Positions 2,076 to 46,302 of a DNA stretch of 64,000 nt are shown piece after piece; position 1 is the first letter of the stretch; the number at the start of each line of letters is the position of its first letter. The notes under the pieces are model-generated. The model had not been told where the DNA came from and made no database searches. It saw only the letters and a list, made by a program, of their open reading frames with translations. Made by a program: the position numbers and the translations under genes. Location: the NCBI GenBank assembly GCA_041649575.1, contig JBAZMW010000004.1, positions 21,687 to 85,686 on the forward strand, given 5' to 3'. This DNA is from Patescibacteria group bacterium. Lineage in GTDB: Bacteria > Patescibacteriota > Patescibacteriia > 2-01-FULL-39-33.

Positions 2076-4730
2076 CTATTTCAAACTCTGCAAATTATCT
2101 TTTAATTTTAACACTTTTTCCTGGGCCATGGCCAGTTTTTCCTTTTCCCCGTCTACCACTATTTTAGGAGCGTGGCTAATAAACTCCTGGCCAGCCAACT
2201 TAACCTCTAAATTTTTTATATATTTTTCTAACTCGCCAATCTCCTTATTTAAACGCTCTTGTTCTGCTACCCTATTAATTGTAACCGATAAATCCAAATA
2301 TATCTGTGCCTGGTTGGTTACGGCACCAAGACTACTAGCTGGCTTCTGGCTGATGTTGTCGGTGACAGTCAAAGATTCTAGACGAGCCAGACGCTTGATA
2401 ATAACCGCTTGCGACTCGAGCAATTCTTTTTGCCCACTGATAATTACCGCTTTCAATAATTTAGCTGGCTCAATTTTGTTTTCACTGCGTAAATTTCTAA
2501 TGGAAGTGATGATCTGTTTTATTAATTCAAAATCTTTATTCTTGGCCGGCCCGGCTTTAACCGCGGGCCAAGTTTCGACCATCAATAAACCGCTGTCAAA
2601 ATTATGCCAAAGCTCTTCGGTAATAAAGGGGCAGAAAGGATGCCAGAGCCGCAAAATATTTTGCAAGACATAAAGCAGAATTTCATCCTTATCACCCTCG
2701 ATTTTGGCAATCTCCAAATACCAATCGGCAAAACAATCCCAGGTAAATTCCTGCAGTTTTTCCGCAGCTAAAGAAAACTCATATTTATCCATCAAATGCT
2801 CAATTAAATGAGTTGTCGCCTCCAGTTCTTGCAAAATCCAATGGTCGGACAAGGTCTGGGCGGTTGGCTTGGCCGTAATTATTTTAATGTCATCGACTGA
2901 CTGCAAAATAAACCGAGAAATATTCCAAAGCTTATTAATAAAATTCCTGGCGCCAGCCACTTTCTCCTCGAAAAATCTCATATCATTACCCGGGGTCGTG
3001 CCTTTAAGTAAGCTAAGCCGCAGGGCATCGGTGCCGTATTTTTCTATAATCTCCAACGGGTCCAGCCCATTACCGGCCGATTTAGAAAACTTTTTGCCAT
3101 TTTTGTCACGTAACATGCCATGAATATAGACCTCCTTGAATGGGATATCGTCTAAAGCATAGGCGGACAAGAGAATCATCCGCGCCATCCAAAAAAATAA
3201 AATTTCATAACCCATCTGCATCCAGGAGGTAGGGTGAAATTTTTTTAGGTCCGCTGTCTGGTCGGGCCAGCCAAGGGTCGAGAAAGTCCAGGCGCCAGAG
3301 GAAAACCAGGTATCTAGGGTATCTTCGTCTTGTCTGATATTTTTACTCTGACATTTTGGACATTTTAACGGACTACCTTCGCTAAAAAATATTTCTTGGC
3401 AATCATCACAATACCAAACTGGTAAACGATGGCCCCACCAAATCTGACGTGAAATACACCAATCACGCAAATTATCAATCCAATGCAAATAAATACTTTG
3501 AAATCGGTTAGGTGTAATTTTGATAATTTTATCCTGATCGCCGCTGTGGCCCGTAGTAACCGCTTCACGCATTAAATCTTTCAAGCTCTGGTCGCGGCCA
3601 GTAATTTTTTTATTAACATCAACAAACCACTGATCCATCGGCAGGGCTTCGACAACATCTTTGAAACGATCGGAGGTACCGACGTTATGTTCGATTTCTT
3701 CTTCACCAACATAAAGGCCATTATCTTTAAGCCAGTTAACAAATTTATCCCGCGCCTCCAAAACCGTTAAACCCTCATAACCCGGACCAGCGGCCTTAAG
3801 CATCCGGCCATCACGGCCAATGACCGGTGTAATACCGATATCTTTGTTATTCTGATACATTTCAAAATCGATCTGGCTGTGAGCCGGTGTCACACCCACG
3901 GCGCCAGTGCCATAATTCATGTCAACATTCTTATCGCCAATGACAGTGATTGTCAGCGGCCGCTCGGCACCGACATCGACTGTGAATTTCTGGCCAATAA
4001 ATTTTTGGTATTTCCCATCATCGGGATGAACCGCTACCGCAGTGTCCCCCAGCTTGGTTTCTGGACGAGTGGTGGCAATGGTAATGGGAAAATCCTTGGA
4101 ATATCTAAAAGTATAGACCCTCGTCTTTTTTGTTTCATAAACCAGCTCGTCATCGGAACAAGTGCTTTGTCCCTTGACCGACCAGTTGACCACCCGATAA
4201 CCGCGATAAATCAAGCCATCATCAAACATCATCTTAAAAAGCTTATTAACAGCAGCCGACCTCTTATCGTCAAAAGTATAGGCCAAACGCGACCAGTCGC
4301 AAGAAGTGCCCATTTTTTTGATTTGACCAATGATGATGCTTTTGTGATTCTCTGCGAATTCGCGAATTCGCTTCAACAGTTCTTCACGTCCTAACTCTTG
4401 ACGCGGATTGGTAATGCCCTGTTTTTTCAGCTCGTCTTCGACCCTGGCTTGAGTGGCCACGGCGGCATGATCCGTGCCGGGAACTATTAAGGCGCGTTTG
4501 CCTTTCATCCGCTGATAACGAATCTCGATATCCATTAGAGAATTTTCAAAAGCGTGACCCAAGTGTAAAATACCCGTGACGTTGGGCGGCGGCATGGAAA
4601 TAACAAAAACCTCGGGACGATCACCCGGCAATTTGTCAGGATCAAAAAAACCGGAAGCTTCCCATTTTTGATAAATCTGGTCTTCGACTGTTGCGGCTTC
4701 GTAAGTTTTAGGTAATTCGATTTTGGCCAT
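2076..4730 (-). CDS. valS: valyl-tRNA synthetase
   Basis: 884 aa with PPPNVTGILHLGH (HIGH motif), KFSKSAGN (KMSKS motif), an editing domain and a C-terminal coiled coil. Confidence 0.9.
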   Translation of the reverse strand: MAKIELPKTYEAATVEDQIYQKWEASGFFDPDKLPGDRPEVFVISMPPPNVTGILHLGHAFENSLMDIEIRYQRMKGKRALIVPGTDHAAVATQARVEDELKKQGITNPRQELGREELLKRIREFAENHKSIIIGQIKKMGTSCDWSRLAYTFDDKRSAAVNKLFKMMFDDGLIYRGYRVVNWSVKGQSTCSDDELVYETKKTRVYTFRYSKDFPITIATTRPETKLGDTAVAVHPDDGKYQKFIGQKFTVDVGAERPLTITVIGDKNVDMNYGTGAVGVTPAHSQIDFEMYQNNKDIGITPVIGRDGRMLKAAGPGYEGLTVLEARDKFVNWLKDNGLYVGEEEIEHNVGTSDRFKDVVEALPMDQWFVDVNKKITGRDQSLKDLMREAVTTGHSGDQDKIIKITPNRFQSIYLHWIDNLRDWCISRQIWWGHRLPVWYCDDCQEIFFSEGSPLKCPKCQSKNIRQDEDTLDTWFSSGAWTFSTLGWPDQTADLKKFHPTSWMQMGYEILFFWMARMILLSAYALDDIPFKEVYIHGMLRDKNGKKFSKSAGNGLDPLEIIEKYGTDALRLSLLKGTTPGNDMRFFEEKVAGARNFINKLWNISRFILQSVDDIKIITAKPTAQTLSDHWILQELEATTHLIEHLMDKYEFSLAAEKLQEFTWDCFADWYLEIAKIEGDKDEILLYVLQNILRLWHPFCPFITEELWHNFDSGLLMVETWPAVKAGPAKNKDFELIKQIITSIRNLRSENKIEPAKLLKAVIISGQKELLESQAVIIKRLARLESLTVTDNISQKPASSLGAVTNQAQIYLDLSVTINRVAEQERLNKEIGELEKYIKNLEVKLAGQEFISHAPKIVVDGEKEKLAMAQEKVLKLKDNLQSLK

Positions 4731-7732: not shown

Positions 7733-9331
7733 ATGAAAATTAGCGTAGAAAAAAAATTACGAAACTGGCAACTAGAGGCGCTGAAATCGCCCGAGTTTGC
7801 TTTTGTGGAAAAGTTGACAAAAAAATTCCCCGAGGCGAAAGTTTACTTGGTGGGCGGTGCCGTCAGAGACCTGATTCTAGAGCGTGATACTAAGGATTTT
7901 GATTTTGTGGTGGCCAAAGTGCCGGCCAAGGATTTGGAAAAATTCCTTAGCTCTTTGGGCAAGGTCAATCTGGTTGGCAAAAGTTTTGGAGTATTTAAGT
8001 TTGTACCTAATAACGTCATCCCGAGCGAAGCCAGGGGAGAAGTGTGGGGATCCCGCGGGATTGCCACGTCGTCCGGTTCCGTTACGCGGAACCGGTCTCC
8101 TCGCAATGACATTATTTTTGAACCCTTCGATATCGCTCTGCCGCGCACCGAGCATGCGGGCATGAGCGGCGGCTACAGGGATTTCGAAGTGCAAAGCGAC
8201 CAAGACTTGCCAATCGAGGAAGATTTGTCACGCCGCGATTTTACTATTAATGCCCTGGCCTGGGACTTGAGAGAGAAAAAAATAATTGACGAGTTTGACG
8301 GACTAAAAGATTTGGAAAATAAAACTATCAAAGCGATTGGCAAACCGGAACAGAGATTCCAGGAGGATTATACCCGCCTGCTGCGCGCTATCAGGCTCTG
8401 CTGCCAACTGGATTTTATGATCGAGGCCCACACCCTGAAAACCATTCACGACAAAGCTCAAAAAATCGGCACCATTGCCAAAGAAAGAATTAATGAAGAG
8501 CTAGTCAAAATTGTCATGTCGAACAAAGCCGAGGACGGTTTTCGATTACTGCAAAAAATCGGGCTTTTAAAAATATTAATTCCAGAACTGGAGTCGACGG
8601 TTAACATCAGCCAGAATAAACATCATATTTACGACATTTTTGAACATAGCGTACGGGCGCTGGGAGCAGGCGCTCAAAGGAATTATTCGCTTTGGGTGCG
8701 GCTGGCGGCGCTACTGCATGACATTGGCAAGCCGCAAACAAAAGAGGGCGAAGGCCCCGACTCAACTTTTTACAACCACGACATCGTTGGAGCCAAAATC
8801 GCCAAAAATATTTTAAAACGACTAGATTTTTCCAATGAGACTATTAGCAAGGTGACGCATTTAGTGCGTTATCATATGTTTTATTATGCCCTGGATACGG
8901 TGAGCGACGCCGGAGTAAGGCGACTACTAGCGCGACTGGGCAAAGAAAATATTCAAGATTTCATTGATGTCAGAATCTGCGACCGGTTGGGCATGGGCCG
9001 GCCTAAGGCCAAACCCTGGAAGCTGATTGAGCTGGAACGCCGACTCAAGGAAGTGCAGCTCGATCCCATTACTCCCAAGATGCTCAAAATCAATGGCGAT
9101 GAGCTGATGAAAATTTTGAAAATCAAGCCGGGACCGCGAGTGGGCCTGATACTTAATGCCCTGCTGGGCGAGGTTTTGGAAGATCCCGAGAAAAACGATA
9201 AAAAATATTTGACCAAAAAAATGAAAGAGTTGGATAAATCGAAAGACGAAGAATTAAAAAAACTAAATCCGGATGTAAAATTTTACGAAGAAGAAAGGAA
9301 GAGGTTGCTACATTTCAATAAAGACAACTAA
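7733..9331 (+). CDS. cca: CCA-adding tRNA nucleotidyltransferase / poly(A) polymerase family with HD domain
   Basis: GGAVRD and RRDFTINA head motifs; HD domain (LLHDIGK); 532 aa; contains an in-frame 96-bp repeat insertion. Confidence 0.8.
   Translation: MKISVEKKLRNWQLEALKSPEFAFVEKLTKKFPEAKVYLVGGAVRDLILERDTKDFDFVVAKVPAKDLEKFLSSLGKVNLVGKSFGVFKFVPNNVIPSEARGEVWGSRGIATSSGSVTRNRSPRNDIIFEPFDIALPRTEHAGMSGGYRDFEVQSDQDLPIEEDLSRRDFTINALAWDLREKKIIDEFDGLKDLENKTIKAIGKPEQRFQEDYTRLLRAIRLCCQLDFMIEAHTLKTIHDKAQKIGTIAKERINEELVKIVMSNKAEDGFRLLQKIGLLKILIPELESTVNISQNKHHIYDIFEHSVRALGAGAQRNYSLWVRLAALLHDIGKPQTKEGEGPDSTFYNHDIVGAKIAKNILKRLDFSNETISKVTHLVRYHMFYYALDTVSDAGVRRLLARLGKENIQDFIDVRICDRLGMGRPKAKPWKLIELERRLKEVQLDPITPKMLKINGDELMKILKIKPGPRVGLILNALLGEVLEDPEKNDKKYLTKKMKELDKSKDEELKKLNPDVKFYEEERKRLLHFNKDN
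8035..8130 (+). mobile_element. MITE-like palindromic element inserted in frame in cca (32 codons)
   Basis: 5' GTCATCCCGAG and 3' CTCGCAATGAC terminal inverted repeats; internal 9-bp hairpin CCGGTTCCG/CGGAACCGG; about 62% GC; the 3' half recurs at 35581-35624 and 44431-44466. Confidence 0.65.
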
Positions 9332-10085: not shown

Positions 10086-11078
10086 ATGATAGAAAACATT
10101 ACCATAATAAATTCTAATAGTCAAGGCCAACGCCTGGATAAATTTTTGGTGGAAAAATTACCGGAATTATCCCGTTCGCAAATCCAAAAAGCCATTAAAG
10201 ACGGTCTGGCTTTAGTCAATGATAAAAAGGTGACAGTACACCACTTTTTGAAAGCGGGTGATGTCGTTAAAATCATTCCCCTTTCTTCTAAGGAGGGGCC
10301 AGGGGGAGGTTCTGAAAGCCGCGAGAAAAAAAATAAGCCCTCAAAACCCCTCCCCGCCTCTCCTTGGAAGGGGGCGGGGCCAAAAATAATTGCCGACGAG
10401 CCGGAATTTTTGATTATCGAAAAGCCGGCTGGGCTACTGGTCCATCCGACGGAAAAAGGCGAGACAGACACCTTGGCGGATTGGCTGATTGCTAAATATC
10501 CGAAGCTTAAAAAAATCGGCGAAGACCCTAGCCGTCCAGCCATCGTTCACCGATTAGACAAAGAGGTCTCTGGACTGATGCTGATACCCAAAACTCAAGA
10601 GGCTTTTGATTATTTTAAAAATCAATTCAAAAAACATACCATTGTAAAAAAATACTCGACTTTGGTCTGCGGCCAAATAGCAGCGGCTGAAGGAGAGATC
10701 GACCTGCCCATAGGACGAAGCAAAAATAAAGCCGGACTCTTCGCTGCCAAGCCGCACAGCCAATGGGGAGAAAAGGACAAAAAAGCAGTCACCAGGTTTA
10801 AGGTTATTAAAAAATTCAAAAATTATACCTTGCTGGAAGTAGAAATTCTAACCGGGCGCACCCATCAAATCCGCGTTCATATGCTGGCCTTGGGTCATCC
10901 GGTACTAGGAGACCAGTTGTATGGCAAAAAACCAACCAATAAAAAGACAAAAACAACCCCAGAAAGAATCTTCCTCCACGCCACCAGACTGGCCTTTTCT
11001 GATCAACAAGGACAACCTCGGGAATTTATCAGTCCCTGGCCGGCTGAGCTGGAGAATTTTATCAGAACTTTGAAATAA
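10086..11078 (+). CDS. rluD: RluA-family 23S rRNA pseudouridine synthase (RluD-like) with low-complexity in-frame insertion
   Basis: N-terminal S4 domain; catalytic HRLD motif (AIVHRLDKEVSGLML); TGRTHQIRVH; start uncertain (ORF is open from 10005). Confidence 0.75.
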   Translation: MIENITIINSNSQGQRLDKFLVEKLPELSRSQIQKAIKDGLALVNDKKVTVHHFLKAGDVVKIIPLSSKEGPGGGSESREKKNKPSKPLPASPWKGAGPKIIADEPEFLIIEKPAGLLVHPTEKGETDTLADWLIAKYPKLKKIGEDPSRPAIVHRLDKEVSGLMLIPKTQEAFDYFKNQFKKHTIVKKYSTLVCGQIAAAEGEIDLPIGRSKNKAGLFAAKPHSQWGEKDKKAVTRFKVIKKFKNYTLLEVEILTGRTHQIRVHMLALGHPVLGDQLYGKKPTNKKTKTTPERIFLHATRLAFSDQQGQPREFISPWPAELENFIRTLK

Positions 11079-11395: not shown

Positions 11396-11431
11396 CTGAT
11401 TTATAATTTGTAAATTATTTCTAAATCATAT

Positions 11432-11899
11432 ATGTCCAATAGGCATCTGGCCAGAACTTTGGCCATTCAAACCCTCTACCAGTGGGATTTCAACGGACAA
11501 AAGGAAGATGTTTTGCAAATTATGGAAAAAAATCGCCAGGAATTCGCTCCCGAATTCGATGACGGCGGTTTTATTAAACATTTGATTGAAGGAATCAAAA
11601 GCAACCTAAAACAAATAGACGCTCTAATCACCAAATTCGCTCCGGAATGGCCACTGGAGCAAATCACTATTGTTGACCGCAACGTCTTGAGGCTGGGCAC
11701 TTTTGAACTGAAGTTTGATGAGAGCATTCCGGCCAAAGTGGCCATTAATGAGGCGATTGAGCTGGCCAAAACTTTCGGCGGGGAATCCTCGGGTAAATTT
11801 GTTAATGGCGTTTTGGGAGCGGTCTACAAAGAAATCGGCGAAAAAGAAATTGACAAGCAAAAGAATTTGCAGCCAGACAATAAATTAGCCGCTAGTTAA
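11432..11899 (+). CDS. nusB: transcription antitermination factor NusB
   Basis: [17 protein letters not shown] is the NusB N-terminal signature. Confidence 0.85.
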
Positions 11900-11905
11900 A
11901 CAATC

Positions 11906-12613
11906 TTGGCACCACTTATGAAAAATTTGTCTAGTTTAGAAAAAATTCTGGGAGTGACTTTTAAAAAACAAGAATTGCTGCTCCAGGCCGTAACACATCG
12001 TTCTTATCTGAATGAACATCCAGAATTCAAGCTTGAACATAACGAAAGATTGGAATTTCTGGGCGACGCCGTTTTGGAGCTAATAGTTACAGAATATCTT
12101 TATAACAACTACCCCAACCCAGAGGGAGAGCTGACCAACTGGCGAGCCAGCCTGGTCAACCGTTCCAGCCTGGCAGAGACCGCTCAAGAATTAGCCATTG
12201 AGTCTTTTATTTCCATGAGCAAGGGCGAGAGTAAGGATAAAAATTCCAAAGCCCGGCAATATATCGTGGCCAACGCCATTGAAGCCATTATCGGCGCCGT
12301 TTATCTTGATCAAGGAATCGGCTCGGCCAAGAAATTCATCAAAAAAAACATTCTAAGCAAGCTGGAAAGAATCATAGCCAATAAGCTATACGTCGACCCC
12401 AAAAGCGATTTCCAAGAAAAGGCCCAAGACAAATTGGGTGTCACGCCGGTGTATAAAGTTTTGGAGTCGTCCGGGCCGGATCATGCTAAAACCTTCAAAG
12501 TGGGGGTATATCTGGCCAATAAAATGCTAGCAACCGGTGTTGGTTCCAGTAAGCAAGAGGCGCAAACAGCAGCGGCCAGAAACGCCTTGGCCAAAAAAGA
12601 TTGGGAAAATTAA
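11906..12613 (+). CDS. rnc: ribonuclease III
   Basis: RNase III signature NERLEFLGDAVLEL plus a C-terminal dsRBD. Confidence 0.9.
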   Translation: MAPLMKNLSSLEKILGVTFKKQELLLQAVTHRSYLNEHPEFKLEHNERLEFLGDAVLELIVTEYLYNNYPNPEGELTNWRASLVNRSSLAETAQELAIESFISMSKGESKDKNSKARQYIVANAIEAIIGAVYLDQGIGSAKKFIKKNILSKLERIIANKLYVDPKSDFQEKAQDKLGVTPVYKVLESSGPDHAKTFKVGVYLANKMLATGVGSSKQEAQTAAARNALAKKDWEN

Positions 12614-15734: not shown

Positions 15735-17264
15735 TTATCTGGCAAATTCAACCACCCGCTTTTCTCTAATAACATTGACTTTAATTTCGCCAGGATATTT
15801 GAGCTCGGCTTCGATTTTTTCGGCAATATTCTGGGCCATCTTGGCAGCGCCCAAATCATCAACTTGTTCCGGAGTGACGAAAACCCGAACCTCGCGGCCA
15901 GCTTGAATGGCATAAGCCTTTTCTACTCCAGCAAAACCCTTGGCAATGCCTTCCAGCTCTTCGAGCCGTTGCAGATAATTTTCGTAAGTATCCTTTCTGG
16001 CTCCAGGCCTGGCTCCAGAAATCGCGTCAGCCACTTTGACAATCACACCTTCTAAAGTGGTTGGTTTATCGCTATGATGCTCAAAAACCGGTTTGATAAT
16101 ATCTTCGCTAATACCAAACTTTTTACAAATATCACGGCCAATCTCCGGGTGTGTGCCTTGCACTTCATGATCGACGGCTTTGCCGATATCGTGCAGCAAG
16201 CCAGCTTTCTTGGCCACCGAAACATCGGCGCCCAATTCTTCGGCTAACAGCGCCGATAGATGCGCCACCTCGACGGAATGGTTTAGGATGTTTTGGCCGT
16301 AACTAGTGCGATACTTCAAACGGCCGACAATCTGAACCAGCTTGGGATCCAGGCCGGCCACGCCGACTTCGTAAACGGCGCTCTCACCGGCTTTCTTAAT
16401 ATCGGCGGCGATTTCTTTTTTGGCCTCGTTAATAGTCTCTTCTATTCTGGCGGGGTGGATCCGGCCGTCGAAAATGAGTTTTTCCACGGCCAGCTTGGCC
16501 ACCTGGCGCCTAATCGGACTGAAAGAAGAAAGAGTGATGGCTTGGGGCGTATCGTCGATAATCACTTCCACGCCAGTCAATTGTTCAATGGTCCTGATGT
16601 TTCTGCCTTCACGACCGATAATCCTGCCTTTCATCTCATCATTGGGTAAATCGACAACCGAGGAGGTGGTTTCCTGGGCATGAGAAGCGGCGCAACGCTC
16701 AATTACCGCAGATAAAATTTCCTTGGCCTTCCTCTCCAATTCTTCCGAGGCTTCGTATTCCAATTTTTTCAGACGATTGACCAAATTTTCGGCAATGACT
16801 TTTTCGACATTATCCAATAATACTTTTTCTGCCTCAGCCTTGGTCAAACCGGCAATTTTTTCCAGTTTAGCCAGCTGTTCTTCTTTAATCCGACCGATCT
16901 CTTCTTTAACTTGGCTAAGCCTGTCGGCCTTGTCAGCCAATTCCTGTTTTTTGTTTTCCAAATCCATCAACTTTTGATCGAAAAGCGCTTCTCTTTTTTC
17001 CAAACGACGCTTGGCGATCTCAGTTTCCTGTCTTAGTTGCCGAACATCGGTTTTGGCATCTTCCAAAACCTTGATCGATCTTTCCTGGGCATCGAGCAAA
17101 ATCTGTTTTTCTTTAGTACGGGCGTCGGCAATTAATTTTTTGACTCTGGCCTCAATGGTATCTTGGCGATTTTTGGCCCATAATCTTCTGGCCAGATAAC
17201 CAATCGCAAAACCGCCGACCAAAAAAATGACGGCCAGGATAAAATAGATGAATAAATTTTCCAT
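15735..17264 (-). CDS. rny: ribonuclease Y
   Basis: N-terminal TM helix, coiled coil, KH domain, and HD domain (LLHDIGKAVDHEVQGTH). Confidence 0.9.
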   Translation of the reverse strand: MENLFIYFILAVIFLVGGFAIGYLARRLWAKNRQDTIEARVKKLIADARTKEKQILLDAQERSIKVLEDAKTDVRQLRQETEIAKRRLEKREALFDQKLMDLENKKQELADKADRLSQVKEEIGRIKEEQLAKLEKIAGLTKAEAEKVLLDNVEKVIAENLVNRLKKLEYEASEELERKAKEILSAVIERCAASHAQETTSSVVDLPNDEMKGRIIGREGRNIRTIEQLTGVEVIIDDTPQAITLSSFSPIRRQVAKLAVEKLIFDGRIHPARIEETINEAKKEIAADIKKAGESAVYEVGVAGLDPKLVQIVGRLKYRTSYGQNILNHSVEVAHLSALLAEELGADVSVAKKAGLLHDIGKAVDHEVQGTHPEIGRDICKKFGISEDIIKPVFEHHSDKPTTLEGVIVKVADAISGARPGARKDTYENYLQRLEELEGIAKGFAGVEKAYAIQAGREVRVFVTPEQVDDLGAAKMAQNIAEKIEAELKYPGEIKVNVIREKRVVEFAR

Positions 17265-31288: not shown

Positions 31289-32251
31289 CTACCCGAGGCA
31301 GAACACCGACGCCGAATAGTCGTCGCTGGCATACGACAGATAGTCGGTGTAGTCGAAGTTCGCATAGGAATCGTAGGCGAGGAAGCGGAGCGAGTAGGAC
31401 TGCCACTGAAGAGCCGGGCAGCGCACTATTGGTGTCTTGGCGTCTCGGCAGAGCTCCTTGGCATAGGCCATGTAAGCCACTGCCGTGTCCAAGCCGCCGC
31501 CCAAGAGCATCCATTCGGGAATCTGGGCGGACAGTTCATGCCCGACGAAGGTCTCGCGACAAGCGTCGACGCTGTAACCGCCGAAAGGCAGAAGCGTGAC
31601 GCCGACAACCGGTTCTTTGGCCAAGGCGGCGAGCAGACACTCGTGCCGACTGCCGGCTACGATGCTGACCTCGCCGGCCAAGTCGGTTTCACGGTAGTTC
31701 GTGAACTTCCTGCCCTCGGCCTCGAAGGCTTCCTCATAAGCGCTCCTCACCCCGTCGACAAAAAGCTTCAAGGTGGCGCCGTAGCCACCTTTGTCCTCCG
31801 GCAGAATCGTGCCCGCTGGCAGAACAGTCGGCAGCCAAATGCCTTTGACGGCATTGGCCGTGCGAGGATCGCCCGCCAGCCTGGTGATAGTGGCCTTGGC
31901 TCGTACTTCGAATTCCTCGGCCGACGGCAAGCTGAGCGCCTCGGCTTTGACTCGCAGTCCGATGGCCAGATGCCGACGGACGCGCTCGAGGATCTCGCCG
32001 TAGTTGATCGAGGGTTGGTTGACGTAATACGCGCCAGCGTCGCAGAACGCAGCTTTGAGTCCGGGAAACGGAATGAAGCGGCTGTTCTTGTCGAACAGCT
32101 TACGGACGGTCTCCTTGATCTCCGCGGTCATTTCGTGACGCAGCAGCGCCTTGACGACATTGACGCCGCCAAGCTGGTTGCCAAGCGCCACCCAGTGGGT
32201 ATGTGGCAGGTCGTCCAGTGTTTCCAGTTGATCAATGTTAAAGTCCTTCAT
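31289..32251 (-). CDS. hypothetical protein D (320 aa) of GC-rich island
   Basis: RBS AAAGGAG; strong promoter TTGACA-17-TATAAT at 32363..32335; about 60% GC; no recognisable domain. Confidence 0.5.
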   Translation of the reverse strand: MKDFNIDQLETLDDLPHTHWVALGNQLGGVNVVKALLRHEMTAEIKETVRKLFDKNSRFIPFPGLKAAFCDAGAYYVNQPSINYGEILERVRRHLAIGLRVKAEALSLPSAEEFEVRAKATITRLAGDPRTANAVKGIWLPTVLPAGTILPEDKGGYGATLKLFVDGVRSAYEEAFEAEGRKFTNYRETDLAGEVSIVAGSRHECLLAALAKEPVVGVTLLPFGGYSVDACRETFVGHELSAQIPEWMLLGGGLDTAVAYMAYAKELCRDAKTPIVRCPALQWQSYSLRFLAYDSYANFDYTDYLSYASDDYSASVFCLG

Positions 32252-32334
32252 CTTGCGCTCCTTTCAGCCCATGGCCGAAATGGCTTTTCCCCTACCCGAG
32301 GATTGGGAACAGTCCTACGCAGGACCATCAGACT

Positions 32335-32363
32335 ATTATACTAAATAAAAAATAATCTGTCAA
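32335..32363 (-). promoter_or_regulatory. consensus sigma70 promoter (TTGACA-17-TATAAT) on minus strand
   Basis: Minus strand: TTGACAgattattttttatttagTATAAT in the AT-rich spacer upstream of gene D. Confidence 0.6.
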
Positions 32364-32520
32364 TACTAACAAATTATTTAAAGTTAAATAAAAACTTCCT
32401 CATCTGTCCGGCCAAGCTTCTTGAATGAGATAGAAACTATCTCAAACAAGAAGAAGAGAGAGTTTGGCCGGACGAATGAAGAAGCTTTAAAAGTATTCCT
32501 CAAAACTTGTAAAAAAGATT

Positions 32521-32569
32521 TGCAAGTTTAGTTGGAAGGAGAAGCTGACAAACCACATCAGCTTCTCCC
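32521..32569. repeat. island repeat, short copy 3
   Basis: TGCAAGTTTAGTTGGAAGGAGAAGCTGA-caaaccaca-TCAGCTTCTCC: 11-bp perfect hairpin plus the CCAGTTGGAAGGAG-like core. Confidence 0.6.
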
Positions 32570-32593
32570 AAAACCATCTACCGATCAAGGCCG

Positions 32594-33451
32594 CTAGGCC
32601 TTGGCGATGACGGCGCGAGTTGCCTCAACCGCCGCCACGACGTCGGCCAGCATCATGCGCTGACCGCGGGGACTGCCGGCGATGCCCGCGTGCCCGCCGG
32701 CCGCCTCGCCCCAAAGCCCCTGCACGATCTCTCGTGCCGAGACTCCGGGGATCGGGTCGGCGATAGACACTGTCACCGCACCGGTGACTGTGTTGAAGGC
32801 GACAACAGCTTTCGCCAAGTCGCCTTCCGGGTCGACGTACAGATGGCTGACAAACGTGTCCGCCACCCGCACTGCCACCCCGCCGCCAGCCTCGACGAAC
32901 GATTGCGCATTCAGCGCGACCTCCGCCGAGCGGAACGCCTCGCCCGCCGCGAGAAGTTCCGGGTCGTCAGCGCAAATGCGCTCAACGACCCTGACGGCCT
33001 CCATCACCTGCTCGGTGACTTCGGCCGCGCTGCCGTCGCGCGGGGGCAGGCAGCGGTGACCGTTGCTCCACGCCCAGAAAGCGTAGAGCCGGACGATGTC
33101 GGCTGGCTCGGCGCCGGCTTGGCCTAGCTTGTGCGGACCGTTGAGGTCCACAAAAGCTGCCAGGAGCCAGAATCCCGGCGTCTCGGGCTTGCGACCGAGA
33201 ACGGCCGCACAGCCGCCGACGGAATCGAGATCAAGGTGGGAAAGTCCCACCGCCTCGACTTCACCAGCCGCGCCGTTGTCGGCGAGGCAGGGGGCGGGGT
33301 TGCCCGCCCGCGGCCCGTGATGGGCCAGGGTTGCGACGGACCCGGCGACACACTCGTCGCCGAATTCCGCCTCAACCGAAGCGGTCAGGCCGAAGGGGGC
33401 GAGGACGGCGGCCAATGCGGCCGCATGGTTTGAAATAAAAAACTTCGTCAT
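32594..33451 (-). CDS. hypothetical protein C (285 aa), about 68% GC; faint DHH/DHHA1-like motifs (HLDLDSVGG ... AAGGHAGIAGSP)
   Basis: RBS AGGAGA 7 nt upstream of ATG; longest frame in the region; the motif resemblance is weak and unverified. Confidence 0.45.
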   Translation of the reverse strand: MTKFFISNHAAALAAVLAPFGLTASVEAEFGDECVAGSVATLAHHGPRAGNPAPCLADNGAAGEVEAVGLSHLDLDSVGGCAAVLGRKPETPGFWLLAAFVDLNGPHKLGQAGAEPADIVRLYAFWAWSNGHRCLPPRDGSAAEVTEQVMEAVRVVERICADDPELLAAGEAFRSAEVALNAQSFVEAGGGVAVRVADTFVSHLYVDPEGDLAKAVVAFNTVTGAVTVSIADPIPGVSAREIVQGLWGEAAGGHAGIAGSPRGQRMMLADVVAAVEATRAVIAKA

Positions 33452-33560
33452 GGCTTATCTCCTCTCTCGGAGTTTCAGCGCGCCACGCGCTGTGCCTCTC
33501 TCTGGTTTATCAAACCCTGCAAGCGAGAGACAAACTGGCAACTCCGCGCCGACAACCGGT

Positions 33561-33724
33561 GCAGAGTTTTTTCCTCAAGCCCCGCAAACTCACATTGTTT
33601 GCGAAGCCAGTTGGAAGGAGGAGACAGAAAAACCACTCTGACTCCTCCGGATAACCTTGTTTGCGTTTGTAACGAGGCCGCCGCCTCCGATTGTTTGACC
33701 TCTAACAATCGTAAAGGAGTGTTC
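33561..33724. repeat. island repeat, long copy 1 (164 nt, multi-hairpin)
   Basis: About 96% identical to 34422-34585; contains the TGCGAAGCCAGTTGGAAGGAGGAG core plus hairpins GGAGGAGACAGA/TCTGACTCCTCC, GCAAAC/GTTTGC and CGATTGTT/AACAATCG. Confidence 0.75.
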
Positions 33725-33762
33725 AGATTAAGGCCTAACACACAAGGTCTTTCTGGCGTGAC

Positions 33763-34333
33763 CTACTCGGACAGCGTGATGATCAGGTCTTTGACCTGAT
33801 CATCACGCTCAGACCAGACGGCGTTGGCTGGCTTCTGCCACCACCGCTTCTTCGGTGCGCCCCATTCGGCGGCGCATTCAGCGAAGTGGCTGCAATCCCC
33901 CCCCGAATCCGCGCAACAGAGCGCGTAATACGCGGCTAGCGCTCGGCGTTCGGCCGCGATACCAGAGGAGGAGCAGCAGAAGGCAGCGACGTCACCCGCT
34001 ACCTTTTTCGCCCGGGCGAGTTGCTCCGGAGAACTTACATTCTCCAGATAACCGCGGGCCCACTCTTCAACATCCGCGATGTCGCACATCGCGGCATGCT
34101 GCGCTACGATCCTTCTGGAAACGCGCACAGCCCACTTATTCGCTAGCTCCTTGGCTAGCGAATAAGAGGCGAGGCAAATGATTTCGTAGCTTGAAAATTT
34201 CCACGAAATCAGAGCATCCACGTCCTCCCTCCTAAACTCATTGCCCGCCCCATACCAGCGGCGGGCCACTTCTCTTTCGCATTTAGGAAAGCTCCTGAGA
34301 GCTTCCCTCAGGGTTCTGTACCTTTTCAAGTTC
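33763..34333 (-). CDS. hypothetical protein B (190 aa) of GC-rich island
   Basis: RBS GGAAAGGAGAGAGAG-ATG; the longer upstream frame is an artefact of running into repeat copy 2. Confidence 0.5.
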
Positions 34334-34421
34334 ATCTCTCTCTCCTTTCCGGATGTGGCCGAGATGTGGCCGGTCCCCTCGGAAACTACCATATATCCAA
34401 AACTCCGCACCGACCATCGGC

Positions 34422-34585
34422 GCAGAGTTTTTTCCTCAGGCCCCGCAAACTCACATTGTTTGCGAAGCCAGTTGGAAGGAGGAGACAGAAAAACCACTCT
34501 GACTCCTCCAAATAACCTTGTTTGCGTTTGTAATGAGGCCGCCGCCTCCGACTGTTTGACCTCTAACAATCGTAAAGGAGTGTTC
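34422..34585. repeat. island repeat, long copy 2
   Basis: Near-identical to 33561-33724. Confidence 0.75.
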
Positions 34586-34717
34586 TAATTAAGCTCTTGC
34601 GAGCCGGCCTAACACACAAGGCCGTTTGCCCATGATTTTACGCGGATGGCTTCTGCCCTTGACACGGGCCAAGGACTTTACCGCAACCGCCGAAGCGGGC
34701 TGTGAGGACGCCGAAGG

Positions 34718-35206
34718 TTACTTGGCTTTCGGCATCCCCGGCAGCTCCTGGAGCTGTCGGATGAAGGGGCCGACGATGTCGGCCACCTCCGAACGGAAGC
34801 ACGTTTGTGCTTCCATCGCGCACTCGCAGTCACCAACGGCGATTGCGAATGGAGGAAGGGGAAGTTCCACCGCCTCTTCCGGCAGTGAAACTTCCACCTG
34901 CAGAGGATATTCTCCCCCACAAATGTCTTCTGCCAATACCTGAATATGATCCAGGTAACCGCCCACGCTCACGTAGCGGCGAAACTCCGCCGCCACACTC
35001 GACACGCCCACCGAATATGAAACGGCGAACGTGCCCGACCGGGAGGATAGGCTAACCTCCATCCCGGCCTTCGTAAGAATGACGTACCCGCCATCATTAC
35101 GACCCACCTTCCACCCCGCTGCTACTGCAGCGGAGATGGGAATATTCCCTTCCCGCGGCCAGTTCGACCGCAGAAAAGACTTAACCCCTTCAGAATAGAA
35201 ACTCAT
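34718..35206 (-). CDS. hypothetical protein A (162 aa) of GC-rich island
   Basis: RBS AAAGGAGATAAGTT-ATG; no recognisable domain. Confidence 0.5.
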   Translation of the reverse strand: MSFYSEGVKSFLRSNWPREGNIPISAAVAAGWKVGRNDGGYVILTKAGMEVSLSSRSGTFAVSYSVGVSSVAAEFRRYVSVGGYLDHIQVLAEDICGGEYPLQVEVSLPEEAVELPLPPFAIAVGDCECAMEAQTCFRSEVADIVGPFIRQLQELPGMPKAK

Positions 35207-35404
35207 AACTTATCTCCTTTCACAGAGATCTCGGCCTGCCACAGGCCGTGTCCGCGAGGATCGACAATCCTCTTTTTTCGTCTCATGACGGCGGACAAAT
35301 TACTGCCAGTACCGCACAATGCGGCGCTGGTTTTTTCTATGCTTACCAGCCGCTGACCCAAGTCAGCTGCTAGGAATTTCCTCAGACTTCACGGACAACA
35401 GGCC

Positions 35405-35450
35405 TGCGAAGTCAGTTGGAAGGAGAAGCCGAGACTCGCCCGGCTTCTCC
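35405..35450. repeat. island repeat, short copy 4
   Basis: TGCGAAGTCAGTTGGAAGGAGAAGCCG-agactcgcc-CGGCTTCTCC. Confidence 0.6.
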
Positions 35451-35547
35451 AAAATCAATCATGAATAAATATTTAATTTATTTATCTCTTAATTTTTTAT
35501 TCAGTTGTCAAAATACTTCTTGTCTTAGCTTCTCACCATATGCTCCC

Positions 35548-35624
35548 GTAGCCCGAAGCGCCTTGTTTCTTATAACTCGGGATTGCCGCGGTCGCCCGCC
35601 TCTGGCGGACTCCCTCGCAATGAC
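35548..35624. mobile_element. intergenic copy of the MITE-like element (degenerate 5' end)
   Basis: CGGGATTGCCGCGGTCGCCCGCCTCTGGCGGACTCCCTCGCAATGACA matches the 3' halves of the cca and polA copies. Confidence 0.6.
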
Positions 35625-36349
35625 AGTTACGAAAGGCGTTTTACTAATCAAGACGGTTCTTCCAACCAACGGGTGGTTAATCTGTTGATTGGAAATGTCT
35701 GTCTCGAATAGATAGACATTTGGCAAAGGAGTTGCGATCCGAGAGGCTGACGCTAACAAGCATGCGGCGCCAGACCTCGAGCCGGACAGCTATCCAACAA
35801 CCGTCACTCTAACGGTGGTTTGTTGCCCTATGAGTGATATTTAGCGAGGCGAGGATTTCTCTCTTCGATAGTCCTGGCTTCGCCAAACATTTTAAGGTGC
35901 TTGAGTTTAAAGTGCTGTTCCCAACTCTCTCTTTGGGAAGGCCGGGTTCAGAAGTGACAAGCTCTTCCGAGGCCCGGCTCTCCCGCCCGATCTAGAAAGT
36001 TTCAAAAAACTCTCAACCGGGCGGAGAGAGCTTCGAGGTGCTTCCTTTTTCTATTGGTCGCCGCCCTCTCTCCTTGGCGGCTTCCAAATCCAGTAAGGAA
36101 GCAATTGACTTTTTATTTAATGTTCTCTGGTCGGCTATCTTTTTCCTGTTTTCAGCTTACAAACCCATTATATCATATATAACAAATATTGTCAAGCATA
36201 TATGACTAAAAATTTAGAATTTATTATTATTTTCCTAAATTTATTAAAATATATTATCTAATTTATAATACTATTTTGTCACAAAAATTTGACATTTAAA
36301 TATTATGGGTGTATAATGAAAGTATCTATTTAATAAATCAACAAAGAAT

Positions 36350-37138
36350 ATGTACAAACAGTCATTAACTCAGGCCGGGCTGACCGAAGAAATGGCCCAA
36401 ATTTATGAGGTTTTGCTGAAAAACGGGCCACAAAATGCTGGAAAATTAGCCAAAAAAACCGGCTTAAAACGCGGTTTGGTTTACAAAACACTGGATCGCC
36501 TGTTAGAAAAAGGGTTGCTAGAAAAAAACGAGGCCGACAAAAAGGTGTCCCTATTTTCCGCCAATCATCCGCTAAAATTGCAAGAAATAGTAGAAACCAA
36601 GCAGCAAAGGGCAAAAAACGCCGCTTTGGCCCTGGATGGTGTTTTGCCAGCCCTGGTTTCCGACTACAACCTGCTAAGCGGCAAGCCAGAAGTTCTCTAT
36701 TTCGAAGGCGAGGAGGGTCTAAAAAAAATTGCTTTCGATTCCCTGTCGGCCAAAACGGAAATACTGCAATATATAGACAACGAGGCAGCCAATAAATATT
36801 GGCCAAATCTTAATGAGGAATATGTAAAAAAAAGAAAGGGCCTGGGCATTAAAAAACGCATGATTACCATTGACAGCGAGTTTATCAAAAAAAATAAAGC
36901 CAAGTACGATCGCAGTATTACCGATATTCATCTGATAGACGGAGAGCGCTACCCCTTTGCCACCTCCATGCAGATTTATGACAATAAAGTAAGCCATGTC
37001 ACTTTGAGCCAGAATAAAAAAATCGGCTTTCTCATCGAAGATGCCGAGATTGCTGGAATGCATCGGACTATTTTTGAGTATATGTGGGAAAAAACCAGTC
37101 CACTTTTTGAGCCTCAAACCGCCGCGGCCAATGATTGA
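36350..37138 (+). CDS. TrmB-family transcriptional regulator
   Basis: N-terminal wHTH (AGLTEEMAQIYEVLLKNGPQNAGKLAKKTGLKRGLVYKTLDRLLEKGLL) and a TrmB-type C-terminal domain. Confidence 0.65.
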   Translation: MYKQSLTQAGLTEEMAQIYEVLLKNGPQNAGKLAKKTGLKRGLVYKTLDRLLEKGLLEKNEADKKVSLFSANHPLKLQEIVETKQQRAKNAALALDGVLPALVSDYNLLSGKPEVLYFEGEEGLKKIAFDSLSAKTEILQYIDNEAANKYWPNLNEEYVKKRKGLGIKKRMITIDSEFIKKNKAKYDRSITDIHLIDGERYPFATSMQIYDNKVSHVTLSQNKKIGFLIEDAEIAGMHRTIFEYMWEKTSPLFEPQTAAAND

Positions 37139-43401: not shown

Positions 43402-46302
43402 ATGACAAACAAAAAACAGAGGCTGGTTATCGTTGACAGCAATGCTCTGATTCATCGCGCTTTCCATGCCTTGCCACCACTCTCCAACAAAGAAGGCCAA
43501 TTGACCAATGCGGTCTATGGCTTCACTATGATTTTAATCAAAGCCATCAAAGACTTAAAACCAGATTATTTGGCTGCCTGCTTTGATTTAAAAGGCAAAA
43601 CTTTCCGCCACGAGGCCTATGATCAATACAAGGCCACCAGGATAAAACAGCCCGACGAACTCTACCAGCAAATTCCCATCGTCAAAGAGGTTTTAGAGGC
43701 TTTCAAAATTCCTGTTTTCGAAAAAGAGGGGCTGGAAGCCGACGATTTAATCGGCACCATCGCTCACTTAAAATCTGTTGACCGTCCGGACATCGAAACC
43801 ATTATCGTCACCGGCGACCAAGACACTCTGCAGCTTGTCGACTATAATACCAAGGTGCTAACGCCGCATAAAGGCATGAGCGAAACCATCCTTTATGGCG
43901 AGGATGAGGTAAAAGGAAAATTCGGCGGCCTGGAGCCCAAACAACTAATTGATTATAAAGGGCTACGTGGCGACGCCTCTGATAACATTCCAGGAGTCAG
44001 GGGTATTGGTGAAAAAGGAGCCATTGAACTTTTGCGAGAGTTTGGCAGCGTGGAGAATGTTTACAAAAACATTAAATCCAAAAAAATTAAAGAACGAACG
44101 CGCGAGCTGCTTTTGGCCAACAAAGACACGGCGCTATTATCGAAAAGGCTGGCGACCATAGTTTTGGACGCTCCGATAAAATTCGAATTGGAAAACTGCC
44201 GCTTTAGCGGCTTTGATAAAAATGCCGTGGTAGATATTTTTCAAAAATTAAACTTCAAACGACTACTGGCGCAACTAGCCACACTTTTAAAAAATGACCC
44301 TGCGACAACAATAGGGCAAGGAAATTTATTTTCCCAGATGTCATTCCGAGGAGTCCAGTCATTACACCGACTAGACGACGTTGGCCTGCCTGCCGGCAAG
44401 GCAGGGATCCCGTCTAATATTGAAAAAGATGGGATTGCCGCGGTCGCTCCGCTCCCTCGCAATGACAATAAAAAAATCGGCCGGCAAAATTATCAGTTGG
44501 TTGATGAGGAAAAAACCGCCAAAAAATTCTTAACTGAACTGAAAAGGCAGCGCGAGTTTTGTTTTGATACCGAAACCACCGGACTGGATCCTTTTCAGAA
44601 CAAACTACTGGGAATCAGTTTTTGTTGGCAGGAAGGCGAGGCTAGTTATTTGACAGTCAGGATTATTAAAAACAATCTTAAAGAGCTAAAAAAAATATTT
44701 GAGAACAAAAATGTAAAAAAAATCGGCCATAATCTAAAATATGATATTGAGATTTTGGAAAAAAGCGGCCTAAAGACCAATAGGCTTCACTTCGACACCA
44801 TGATCGCTTCCTATGTTTTGAACCCCGGCGGCCGCCAGCATAATTTAGACACGCTGGCTTTCGTTGAACTGGGATACCAAATGCAACCGATAGAGGAGTT
44901 GATCGGCAAGGGACGAGGCCAAATATCCATGGCCGAAGTGCCAATAGACAAAGTTTGTTGGTATTCTTGCGAAGATGCCGATCTGACTTTTAGACTGTAC
45001 CAGAAACTGAAGCAAGAGCTGGGTGAGCAAGGCACGGAGGGCCTGTTGGAAAACCTGGAAATGCCGCTGGTGGAGGTTTTGGCGACAATAGAAACTAACG
45101 GCGTTAAAATTAATGACAAAATTTTAAAAAAATTAAGTGATGATTTCGCCAAAAAAATTTCTGCCATAGAAAAAAATACCTGGAAGCTAGTTGGAGAAAA
45201 ATTCAATTTGGCCTCGCCGTTACAATTAAAACAAATACTGTTTAAAAAACTAAAAATTGACGGGGCTGGGCTGGCTAAAACAAAAACTGGCATTTCCACC
45301 GGCGCGGCAGAACTGGAAAAACTGGCTGCTTGGTTCAGAGAAAACAAGGCGGACGAAAAAAAACTCAAGGTTATAAATTTACTTCTTGAATTTCGCGAGT
45401 TATCAAAATTGAAATCAACTTATCTGGACGCCTTGCCGGCTCTAATAAATAAGGTTGACGGCCGGGTCCATACCAGCTTTAACCAAACCGTGACAGCCAC
45501 CGGTCGCCTATCGTCCAGCGAGCCAAACCTGCAAAATATTCCTATTCGCACAGAAACTGGCGGACCAATAAGACGCGCTTTCATCGCCGAGCGGGGCTAC
45601 AAAATAATGAAAGCCGACTATTCGCAAATCGAATTGCGTATTGTCGCCTCACTGGCCAATGACAAAAAAATGTTAAAAATTTTTGAGAGCGGCGGCGACA
45701 TTCATACCAGCACCGCGGCTTTTATCCACGGCATCAAACCCGAAGAGGTGACCAAAGAAATCAGGCGTACCGCCAAGGAAGTTAATTTTGGTGTCCTCTA
45801 TGGCATGGGTGCCTGGGGGCTCTCGCAACGCACCGGCATTTCCAACACGGAAGCGCAAAAATTTATCAGCAAATACTTTTCTACTTTTAAAGAAGTGAAA
45901 AAATGGCTGGATGAAACCATTGAGCTTGCCAAAGAACGCGGCTACGTGGAAACGCTTTACGGCCGCCGGCGCTACTTACCGGAAATCAATTCGGGCGTCA
46001 GCCAGGTACGCAGCGGCGCCGAACGCATGGCGGTCAACATGCCCATTCAGGGCACAGCCGCCGACTTAATAAAACTAGCGATGATCAAAATTCATAAAAA
46101 TTTGCCCCATATCAGCCCTAAAGCCAAAATAATCCTGCAGGTGCATGACGAGTTGGTTTTTGAGGTGCCGGAAAAAGACATTAAAAAAGTGGCAAAGTTT
46201 GTCAGGGAAAAAATGAGCTCGGTCATTAGGTTGCGCGCTCCGATTGAAGTAGAGGTCTCCGCCGGCGACAATTGGGGTGAGACCCGGGAAATAAATTTAT
46301 GA
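43402..46302 (+). CDS. polA: DNA polymerase I
   Basis: 5'-3' exo (LVIVDSNALIHRAFHA), 3'-5' exo and pol motifs A/B/C (DYSQIELRI, KEVNFGVLYG, QVHDELVFE); in-frame repeat insertion in the exo-exo linker. Confidence 0.9.
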   Translation: MTNKKQRLVIVDSNALIHRAFHALPPLSNKEGQLTNAVYGFTMILIKAIKDLKPDYLAACFDLKGKTFRHEAYDQYKATRIKQPDELYQQIPIVKEVLEAFKIPVFEKEGLEADDLIGTIAHLKSVDRPDIETIIVTGDQDTLQLVDYNTKVLTPHKGMSETILYGEDEVKGKFGGLEPKQLIDYKGLRGDASDNIPGVRGIGEKGAIELLREFGSVENVYKNIKSKKIKERTRELLLANKDTALLSKRLATIVLDAPIKFELENCRFSGFDKNAVVDIFQKLNFKRLLAQLATLLKNDPATTIGQGNLFSQMSFRGVQSLHRLDDVGLPAGKAGIPSNIEKDGIAAVAPLPRNDNKKIGRQNYQLVDEEKTAKKFLTELKRQREFCFDTETTGLDPFQNKLLGISFCWQEGEASYLTVRIIKNNLKELKKIFENKNVKKIGHNLKYDIEILEKSGLKTNRLHFDTMIASYVLNPGGRQHNLDTLAFVELGYQMQPIEELIGKGRGQISMAEVPIDKVCWYSCEDADLTFRLYQKLKQELGEQGTEGLLENLEMPLVEVLATIETNGVKINDKILKKLSDDFAKKISAIEKNTWKLVGEKFNLASPLQLKQILFKKLKIDGAGLAKTKTGISTGAAELEKLAAWFRENKADEKKLKVINLLLEFRELSKLKSTYLDALPALINKVDGRVHTSFNQTVTATGRLSSSEPNLQNIPIRTETGGPIRRAFIAERGYKIMKADYSQIELRIVASLANDKKMLKIFESGGDIHTSTAAFIHGIKPEEVTKEIRRTAKEVNFGVLYGMGAWGLSQRTGISNTEAQKFISKYFSTFKEVKKWLDETIELAKERGYVETLYGRRRYLPEINSGVSQVRSGAERMAVNMPIQGTAADLIKLAMIKIHKNLPHISPKAKIILQVHDELVFEVPEKDIKKVAKFVREKMSSVIRLRAPIEVEVSAGDNWGETREINL
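44340..44466 (+). mobile_element. MITE-like element inserted in frame in polA linker (effective about 126 bp)
   Basis: TIRs GTCATTCCGAGG ... CCCTCGCAATGACA; internal hairpin CCTGCCT/AGGCAGG; 3' half GGGATTGCCGCGGTCGCTCCGCTCCCTCGCAATGACA shared with the cca and intergenic copies. Confidence 0.65.

Follow-up and report, generated by a model that had tools for sequence, protein, structure and literature searches.

What is the structured repeat that fills the gaps between genes of a GC-rich island in the genome of a Patescibacteria group bacterium (GenBank assembly GCA_041649575.1)? The window, meaning here the whole 64,000-nucleotide (nt) stretch of contig JBAZMW010000004.1 that was analyzed (positions 21,687 to 85,686, forward strand), carries this island, flanked by rpsP and trmD and, at its far end, by a divergent TrmB-like gene. 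The island genes are all on the minus strand and encode proteins of 320, 285, 190 and 162 amino acids (aa), none of which has a Pfam match. An initial annotation had placed a recurrent multi-hairpin repeat in every intergenic gap of the island and had offered a cis-regulatory leader or riboswitch-like RNA, an attC-like recombination site and an antisense small RNA family as candidate roles. We conclude that the repeat is real, that its structure is under selection, and that it is a structured repeat delimiting gene cassettes, without a counterpart in Rfam. With a confidence a little short of even, we read it as the junction element of a cassette-type operon kept in a Patescibacteria sub-lineage, where it may act as RNA punctuation (processing, stabilization or protein binding).

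Four copies, each about 85 nt long, are present in the window on the minus strand (32490-32574, 33565-33654, 34426-34515 and 35372-35456; w1 to w4 below), all in the same orientation relative to the genes, as had been stated. They occupy the four gaps of the array that holds the 285-, 190- and 162-aa genes; the claim that every gap of the island is filled does not extend to the gap between the 320-aa gene and rpsP, where no copy is present. Scores with the covariance model R1, described below, range over 73-88 bits (E 1e-13 to 1e-17): 88.5 bits for w1, the terminal site, 78.3 and 83.4 bits for w2 and w3, which are the cores of two long copies, and 73.1 bits for w4, the first site. The 16-mer core CAGTTGGAAGGAGRAG has four matches in the window, all on the plus strand, versus 0.93 expected. 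The long copies at 33561-33724 and 34422-34585, originally described as near-identical, agree at 159 of 164 positions (97.0%); a repeat finder extends them to 193 nt (33540-33732 and 34401-34593) at 94% identity, and beyond an indel a further 16-21 nt (GGCCTAACACACAAGG) is common to both at 33732 and 34606. The short copies at 32521-32569 and 35405-35450 do hold the core TGCRAR-NNN-AGTTGGAAGGAGRAG and a hairpin, and they extend past those bounds: an upstream TTCCTCA and a second hairpin, lying between TTCCTCA and the core, are found in four of four copies.

Read on the gene (minus) strand, the element consists of hairpin H1' (a GGAGRA..UYCUCC base with a variable top), UUCC-AAYU, a 12-bp hairpin H0' and UGA-GGAA. 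The same parts appear in the plus-strand alignment as TTCC, TCA, H0 (a stem of 11-12 bp), ARTT, GGAA and H1 (a GGAGRA/TYCTCC base with a variable top). UUCC pairs with GGAA (TTCC with GGAA on the plus strand) to give a 4-bp helix, P1. The sense-strand fold is a three-helix junction in which P1 stacks on H1' and encloses H0', with a conserved 4x3-nt internal loop, AAYU/UGA. The stems singled out by the initial annotation are genuine: GCAAAC/GTTTGC is the H0 hairpin of all copies, and GAGGC/GCCTC and CGATTGTT/AACAATCG are part of a module of the 3' untranslated region (UTR) that is kept in another species with compensatory changes.

Syntenic loci were retrieved through orthologs of the TrmB-like protein. 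At locus L045 (GCA_964512275.1; 62% TrmB identity), the same element family lies in the same place and orientation, with the cassette genes on the strand opposite to TrmB. Model R1, built from 11 sites, matched four sites in the window, seven in L045 (one of them outside the training set), one in L043, two plus a truncated one in L048/L049, and eight in L051. The initial annotation had counted a lack of further copies elsewhere against its reading; the model located 18 beyond the window in four other Patescibacteria species, all at the same place, divergent from the TrmB-like gene. No further R1 match was found in the 64-kb window with filters off, and none in L044, L059 or the loci of the 320-aa protein's homologs. 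The element is thus specific to one locus type of a Patescibacteria sub-lineage, represented by five species-level genomes. The suggested comparison with Rfam returned no curated family that matches it: cmscan against Rfam 15, at the gathering threshold and at E <= 10 (window 32200-36300) or E <= 1 (L045, L048, L051), gave nothing at the sites.

Wider searches returned chance or unrelated matches, or none. The exact core TGCRAR-NNN-AGTTGGAAGGAGRAG had no match in a viral collection and one in species-representative genomes, a chance match in a Pseudomonas coding region; of its 32 matches in metagenomes, 30 were one unrelated human-gut sequence and two were single chance matches. Exact-pattern scanning is unsuitable here because the core varies between species (ATTGG, GTCAG). 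A gapped pattern gave seven matches in viral contigs, all scoring at most 17 bits by covariance model and attributed to chance, and a blastn search of phage and plasmid collections with a long copy gave nothing. Homologs of the 285-aa protein were also tried as a route to arrays: L059 has a TrmB neighbor and other repeats and is the locus without R1 sites mentioned above, and L053 lies near a serine recombinase and has no sites. Short-read Logan contigs (L035, L037, L048, L052) break off exactly at long copies or junction elements, so metagenome assemblies probably under-represent or fragment such arrays.

The covariation proposed from the window copies holds across the five species. Over 22 sites, 86.5% of cells pair, versus 33-50% after the 3' partners have been shifted by 1-3 columns; double changes occur in 22 of 25 pairs, and the observed covariation score was reached by none of 500 shuffles. 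P1 shows one compensatory change (TTCT/AGAA at L045 9262). Since the 22-site alignment had been fitted to the model, seven sites from four species were also folded singly and without constraint, and all seven gave H1'-P1-H0' on the minus strand; the unconstrained minimum free energy (MFE) structure of w1 has the same H1'/P1/H0' arrangement. The covariation of this motif is exceptionally clear.

The fold also has a strand. Among non-Watson-Crick cells, the plus strand has 61 A.C (equivalent to G.U on the minus, sense strand) versus 13 G.T, and H0 alone has 49 versus 7; at three positions, including one tandem pair, a wobble is present in about half of all sites. MFE is lower on the sense strand in six of seven sites (e.g., -41.8 versus -30.8 kcal/mol), w2 folds at -41.7 versus -32.8 kcal/mol, and a 236-nt long copy folds at -105.3 kcal/mol sense versus -86.2 antisense. 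On the strength of the A.C versus G.T asymmetry and the MFEs, we conclude that selection acts on the fold of the sense (gene) strand. These data do not support the proposed antisense small RNA family, as they put the fold on the strand that carries the genes.

The segments between sites, here called units, have a uniform layout and varied content. Nearly every one holds a single promoterless open reading frame (ORF) in the sense direction with a GAAAGGAGG-type ribosome-binding site, a 5' UTR of 29-165 nt and a 3' UTR of 1-250 nt. Unit sizes run from 92 to 2752 nt, and one L045 unit of 92 nt is empty. Unit G+C is mostly 46-67% (32-37% in two L051 units) versus 30-47% in the flanks. No ORF is common to different arrays, and gene content differs wholly among the five species at the same locus. 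In the window, unit 1 encodes the 285-aa protein (32594..33451, minus strand; Shine-Dalgarno sequence AGGAGA), unit 2 the 190-aa protein (33763..34335, minus strand), an ORFan among 1.84 billion representatives, and unit 3 the 162-aa protein (34718..35206, minus strand; Shine-Dalgarno sequence AAAGGAGA), which has no family match. None of the three matches Pfam, NCBIfam or PADLOC. The L051 units include genes for a sigma-70 region-2 protein and a radical-SAM protein (precomputed Pfam).

The array is framed by transcription signals. Its promoter (36167..36195, minus strand; TTGACA-17-TATAAT with an extended TG) matches the consensus at 12 of 12 positions, and the same perfect promoter stands at the equivalent place in L043, L044, L045 and L048, so that in five loci including the window it points into the leader and array. 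The divergent TrmB-like winged helix-turn-helix regulator (36350..37138, plus strand) neighbors every array, and its own promoter (36289-36317, plus strand) is likewise perfect. The two 12/12 sigma-70 promoters stand back to back (window 36167-36317), about 95 bp apart, and this pair is kept in L043, L044, L045 and L048; L044 has TrmB and the promoter pair and no junction elements. Between promoter and first site lies a structured non-coding leader of about 700 nt (35457..36160, minus strand; z = -8.4 on that strand). Its core of about 275 nt (35642-35917) matches L045 by nhmmer with an E of 1e-33 and L048, L043 and L051 more weakly, and is seen in at least five species; the leader has no Rfam match. 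Its best-conserved hairpin (35652-35699, loop UAACCAC) carries sense-strand G.U pairs. This loop is complementary to GUGGUU(U/A) of many H1' loops, and no covariation between the two was seen. At the other end, a likely array terminator (32380..32488, minus strand) consists of a hairpin with 28-nt arms followed by UUUUUAUUU; the L045 array also closes with a terminator, a bidirectional one. A perfect promoter for the 320-aa gene (32363-32335, minus strand) comes after the window's terminator, and w1 is therefore not the leader of that gene. The only sigma-70-like match inside the window units is weak (9/12) and lies within the 162-aa ORF. The array would appear to form one transcription unit.

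Comparison of sites within arrays revealed that the element is made of two halves. In L045 and L051, sites alike on the H0 side differ on the H1 side and vice versa; for example, L045 sites 6745 and 7727 are alike at 93% in the left half, and 6745 and 8603 share the right half. This independent assortment of the H1' and H0' halves places the exchange point within the conserved 12-17-nt core. At the end of the array, the last site's H0' is AT-rich and resembles the native flank, both in the window and in L045; in the window this site is w1, whose H1' comes from the 285-aa unit. At the start, the H1' of w4 (GGAGAAGCCGG..CGGCUUCUCC) is also found in the first site of L048, and so belongs to the leader.

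Conserved structured modules further fill the stretch between stop codon and H1' and continue beyond H0' in the direction of the ribosome-binding site. The 3'-UTR module E1 of the 190-aa unit (33655..33752, minus strand), which contains hairpins GAGGC/GCCUC and CGAUUGUU/AACAAUCG and makes up the right part of long copy 1, is 95% identical to the start of its counterpart in the 162-aa unit (34516..34626, minus strand; right part of long copy 2). In L045 units 3 and 6, the corresponding module of about 100 nt matches that of the window at 79% identity; four compensatory changes fall in an 8-bp stem, and sense-strand wobbles are present as well. The 5' module Ht, a hairpin between A and U runs, forms the left part of long copy 1 in the 285-aa unit (33540..33564, minus strand) and the left part of long copy 2 in the 190-aa unit (34401..34425, minus strand), and 5'-UTR hairpin modules are common to several species. 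Unit 2 of the window thus has its 5' module as in unit 1 and its 3' module as in unit 3, so exchange or homogenization is not confined to the core. Identical arrays are found in three independent assemblies having the same TrmB protein. In L051, the 3' part of the leader recurs as an incomplete copy (3485-4051; ..CTTTGCCAATTCTCAGG..GGACTTTGACAATTGAATAG) within the array, flanked by two sites that have the same H0' and downstream promoter, an arrangement that indicates a duplication or fusion of array ends.

How would such an element act as RNA punctuation? In the mechanism we propose, the consensus sigma-70 promoter would drive one long RNA composed of the leader, a string of single-ORF units and the terminator, and at each junction H1' would close the upstream unit and H0' open the downstream one. 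A structure-specific RNA-binding protein or endonuclease may recognize the helix bases and the AAYU/UGA loop, and its cleavage or binding would leave each ORF as an mRNA with a 5' hairpin, H0', and 3' hairpins, H1' and E1. The conserved core is also the point at which unit ends were exchanged in evolution. We infer transcription, and a processing or stabilizing role, from this arrangement. An RNA function is favored because the sense strand is selected, tandem wobbles are frequent, a promoter, leader and terminator frame the array, and the modules resemble UTRs. Modules common to several species, with compensatory changes and sense-strand G.U pairs, fit a UTR function, and identical arrays in three assemblies are as expected of a stable operon. 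As a candidate RNase III-type signal, the element has H1', P1 and H0' arranged coaxially, together with an internal loop, and genes for both RNase III (rnc, 11906-12613) and RNase Y (rny, 15735-17264) occur in the window. The RNase III sites between the early genes of phage T7 are intercistronic structures of a polycistronic transcript, likewise with an internal loop, and would leave a stabilizing hairpin on the upstream mRNA. In contrast, the present element has two adjacent hairpins bridged by P1 and delimits exchangeable units.

Several observations weigh against this proposal. A role in RNA alone leaves unexplained why unrelated ORFs of 32-67% G+C should be collected one per unit at one locus, and why the H1' and H0' halves assort independently around the core. 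H1' lacks the form of a canonical terminator, and none of the known nuclease signals tested fits the internal loop. Single-stranded DNA also tolerates G.T wobble, and by GC skew in the window the sense strand of the array is the lagging-strand template; a DNA-level fold of the same strand is therefore possible.

The main rival explanation, which takes up these points, is an integrase-less, attC-like site of a new cassette platform, folded as single-stranded DNA of the sense strand, whose UUCC-AAYU core would be cut by a tyrosine, serine or HUH (histidine-hydrophobic-histidine) recombinase from elsewhere. Circular single-ORF cassettes would be inserted and excised below the fixed promoter and leader, with the leader-proximal site acting as attI. 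We regard this as possible but rather unlikely. It accounts for consecutive intergenic positions with one promoterless ORF per unit below a common promoter, for unit G+C that is heterogeneous and mostly foreign-looking, for gene content that differs wholly among five species at one locus, and for an exchange point in the core. The empty 92-nt unit, the complete terminal sites with native-looking outer halves, the leader-plus-site duplication inside the L051 array and the lagging-strand position of the sense strand are consistent with it, as is L059, where a 68%-identical homolog of the 285-aa protein lies near another TrmB gene; however, L059 is without such sites.

Other results argue against it. 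Pfam scans of most long ORFs of the 64-kb window found no integrase or transposase and RuvC alone, and precomputed Pfam annotation for five loci, covering +/-10 kb, listed no integrase or recombinase. The attC core pair R'' (RYYYAAC) and R' (GTTRRRY) around a palindrome of 57-141 nt gave no candidates in a regular-expression search of 32201-35700 on both strands, and the GTT triplet is not conserved, reading ATT or GTC in many sites. It is the bottom strand of attC, antisense to the cassette ORF, that folds, whereas here the sense strand is selected. Tandem cells of the G.U type are frequent, units have 5' and 3' modules in common irrespective of the core (unit 2), and the arrays of three independent assemblies are identical. 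By core sites, strand and integrase alike, the element is not a canonical attC. What stands of the original attC-like suggestion is therefore the architecture, namely one ORF per unit, consecutive intergenic regions and a common promoter, and what falls is the R''/R' pair, the integrase and the strand. In a comparison with IS200/IS605 (HUH) elements and palindrome-associated transposable elements, same-strand hairpins flank a conserved core, and no Y1_Tnp was found in the window scans. The idea of guide RNAs was dropped: the leader has CUUCCAAC-like strings, but leader and site cores do not co-vary across species.

Integron cassette arrays, including the integrase-less clusters of attC sites lacking integron integrases (CALINs), invite comparison. 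They too have a structured repeat after every ORF, single promoterless ORFs in the same orientation and one upstream promoter; their repeats vary in sequence and keep their structure, their gene content is variable, and their cassette proteins are mostly of unknown function. Unlike them, the arrays described here have no R''/R' cores and no IntI, two hairpins plus a 4-bp closing helix in place of one imperfect palindrome, a sense-strand fold, and a structured leader of about 700 nt with a TrmB-like regulator in place of intI and attI. The closest published analogue is the DUF1874 RNA motif, a multistem structure whose internal loop is conserved; it recurs from one intergenic region to the next (motif-ORF-motif-ORF), and no integrase was observed at the 5' end (Weinberg et al., 2017; PMC5737381). 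Its authors were undecided between an RNA and an unusual single-stranded-DNA attC (PMC5737381), and their proposal of a multistem attC without an integrase is a precedent for the recombination-site explanation. In contrast to that motif, the present sites have no Rfam match (the presence of its model in the library is unconfirmed), and the element would be a different motif in a different lineage. Our literature searches turned up nothing relevant on integrons, cassette arrays or structured intergenic repeats in Patescibacteria.

A broader version of the recombination explanation, which we think unlikely, is that the locus is a new Patescibacteria gene-capture platform, integron-like but built of different parts: a two-hairpin sense-strand site, a strong promoter, a leader RNA under a TrmB-like regulator, and a recombinase or a leader-RNA-dependent mechanism, by which foreign single-ORF cassettes would be shuffled.

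The initial annotation placed the repeat in the 5' leader and thought of a riboswitch-like RNA. As a cis-regulatory leader, whether riboswitch-like or protein-binding, the element would act on the next ORF downstream, and its sense-strand structure, its highly conserved internal loop and helix bases, and the ORF that follows most copies would fit such a role. However, start codons lie anywhere from 29 to 165 nt away, with differing modules between and no common expression platform; w1 is followed by a terminator and then by a perfect promoter that belongs to the next gene; in L045, neither the terminal copy nor the empty unit offers an ORF to regulate; the downstream genes are unrelated; and Rfam has no match. 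The constant orientation and the gene-strand fold of the original claim are retained, but the element is a junction in which the 3' end of a unit meets the 5' end of the unit after it, and we consider a leader role improbable.

Selfish intergenic repeats that have colonized an operon are a very improbable source of the copies. Repetitive extragenic palindromes (REP), the bacterial interspersed mosaic elements (BIME) built from them, BOX elements and miniature inverted-repeat transposable elements would explain modular, palindromic intergenic units, near-identical long copies in one genome, and modules that combine as in BOX; REP/BIME and BOX can also stabilize upstream mRNA and are homogenized within a genome, two traits that the repeat described here may share. 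The present element, unlike these, is confined to one locus in one orientation, and the locus is conserved across species. With filters off, the rest of the 64 kb yields no copy, neither terminal inverted repeats nor target duplications were observed, window Pfam scans found no REP-associated tyrosine transposase (RAYT), other transposase or Y1 domain, and cross-species covariation points to function.

We give almost no credence to antisense small RNAs or plain intrinsic terminators, for although H1 is strong and a plus-strand hairpin followed by a T-run lies just ahead of several copies, the G.U asymmetry favors the sense strand, the units have no plus-strand promoter, and what follows H1' is UUCCAAYU, not a U-tract, and a terminator scan did not call H1', while canonical U-tract terminators stand nearby. 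A clustered regularly interspaced short palindromic repeats (CRISPR) array, with repeats of 23-47 nt and spacers of 21-72 nt, was rejected on the repeat length of about 85 nt and on the size of the units (92-2752 nt), which contain ORFs. A small ORF starting in the H1' loop (an SD-like GGAGRA, then GUG or AUG) was rejected on its unconserved frame across the core, and K-turn, hammerhead-like and tRNA-like junctions were, by inspection, a misfit with the conserved nucleotides.

Some of the genes in and around the array were characterized further. The 285-aa family has more than 569 homologs, and the named ones come exclusively from Patescibacteria. The modeled structure of the window protein (predicted local distance difference test score 97.5) has its best PDB matches among DHH/DHHA1 phosphodiesterases (NrnA, TM1595, GdpP), which suggests that the family may be an unrecognized nanoRNase or (cyclic) nucleotide phosphodiesterase. 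The protein has conserved AHHG, DLD and GGHxGIAGSPRG motifs. In L045, a sub-threshold Rfam match to LOOT RNA (8849-8945, minus strand; 31.6 bits versus a gathering threshold of 46.4, with the first hairpin well matched) sits in the 3' UTR of a cassette ORF. A catalytic role of the phospholipase D type was considered for the TrmB-like protein and dropped, as the HxK motif is absent and there is no PDB relative.

The 320-aa gene next to the array (31289-32251, minus strand) belongs to a small, Patescibacteria-only family of variable proteins of diversity-generating retroelements. Its L038 homolog has a variable region/template region (VR/TR) pair (10897-11015 and 11409-11527) with 16 mismatches, all at TR adenines, beside bAvd and a reverse transcriptase. 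The window protein has a VR-like C-terminus (YDSYANFDYTDYLSYASDDYSAS), and no TR, Avd or reverse transcriptase lies within the 64 kb; the gene looks like an orphaned target of such a retroelement. A link between this gene and the array was dropped, since the loci of its relatives (L038-L041) carry no elements.

Elsewhere in the window, a palindromic repeat, GGGATTGCCGCGGTCGC...CTCCCTCGCAATGACA, occurs in the leader (35580-35625) and again in frame within the DNA polymerase I gene (44431-44467); it looks like a small mobile palindrome that tolerates translation. The housekeeping genes identified by the Pfam scan include dnaA and dnaN at 51-54 kb. With rnpA and yidC, these genes occupy 50-54 kb, the cumulative GC skew turns at about 52-53 kb, and this point marks the replication origin, about 17-20 kb from the array.

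The genomes of Patescibacteria (Candidate Phyla Radiation) are tiny, and this locus joins in one place a regulator, a promoter, a long leader RNA, a new motif and exchangeable "dark-matter" units. The covariance model can be used to find such arrays in metagenomes, and the motif is directly testable either way. If it acts as DNA, it would be a second, independent invention of the integron principle, standing beside the DUF1874 motif as a multistem recombination site. If it acts as RNA, as we tentatively favor, it would be a new intercistronic punctuation or stability signal and a practical handle on the expression of accessory genes in Patescibacteria.

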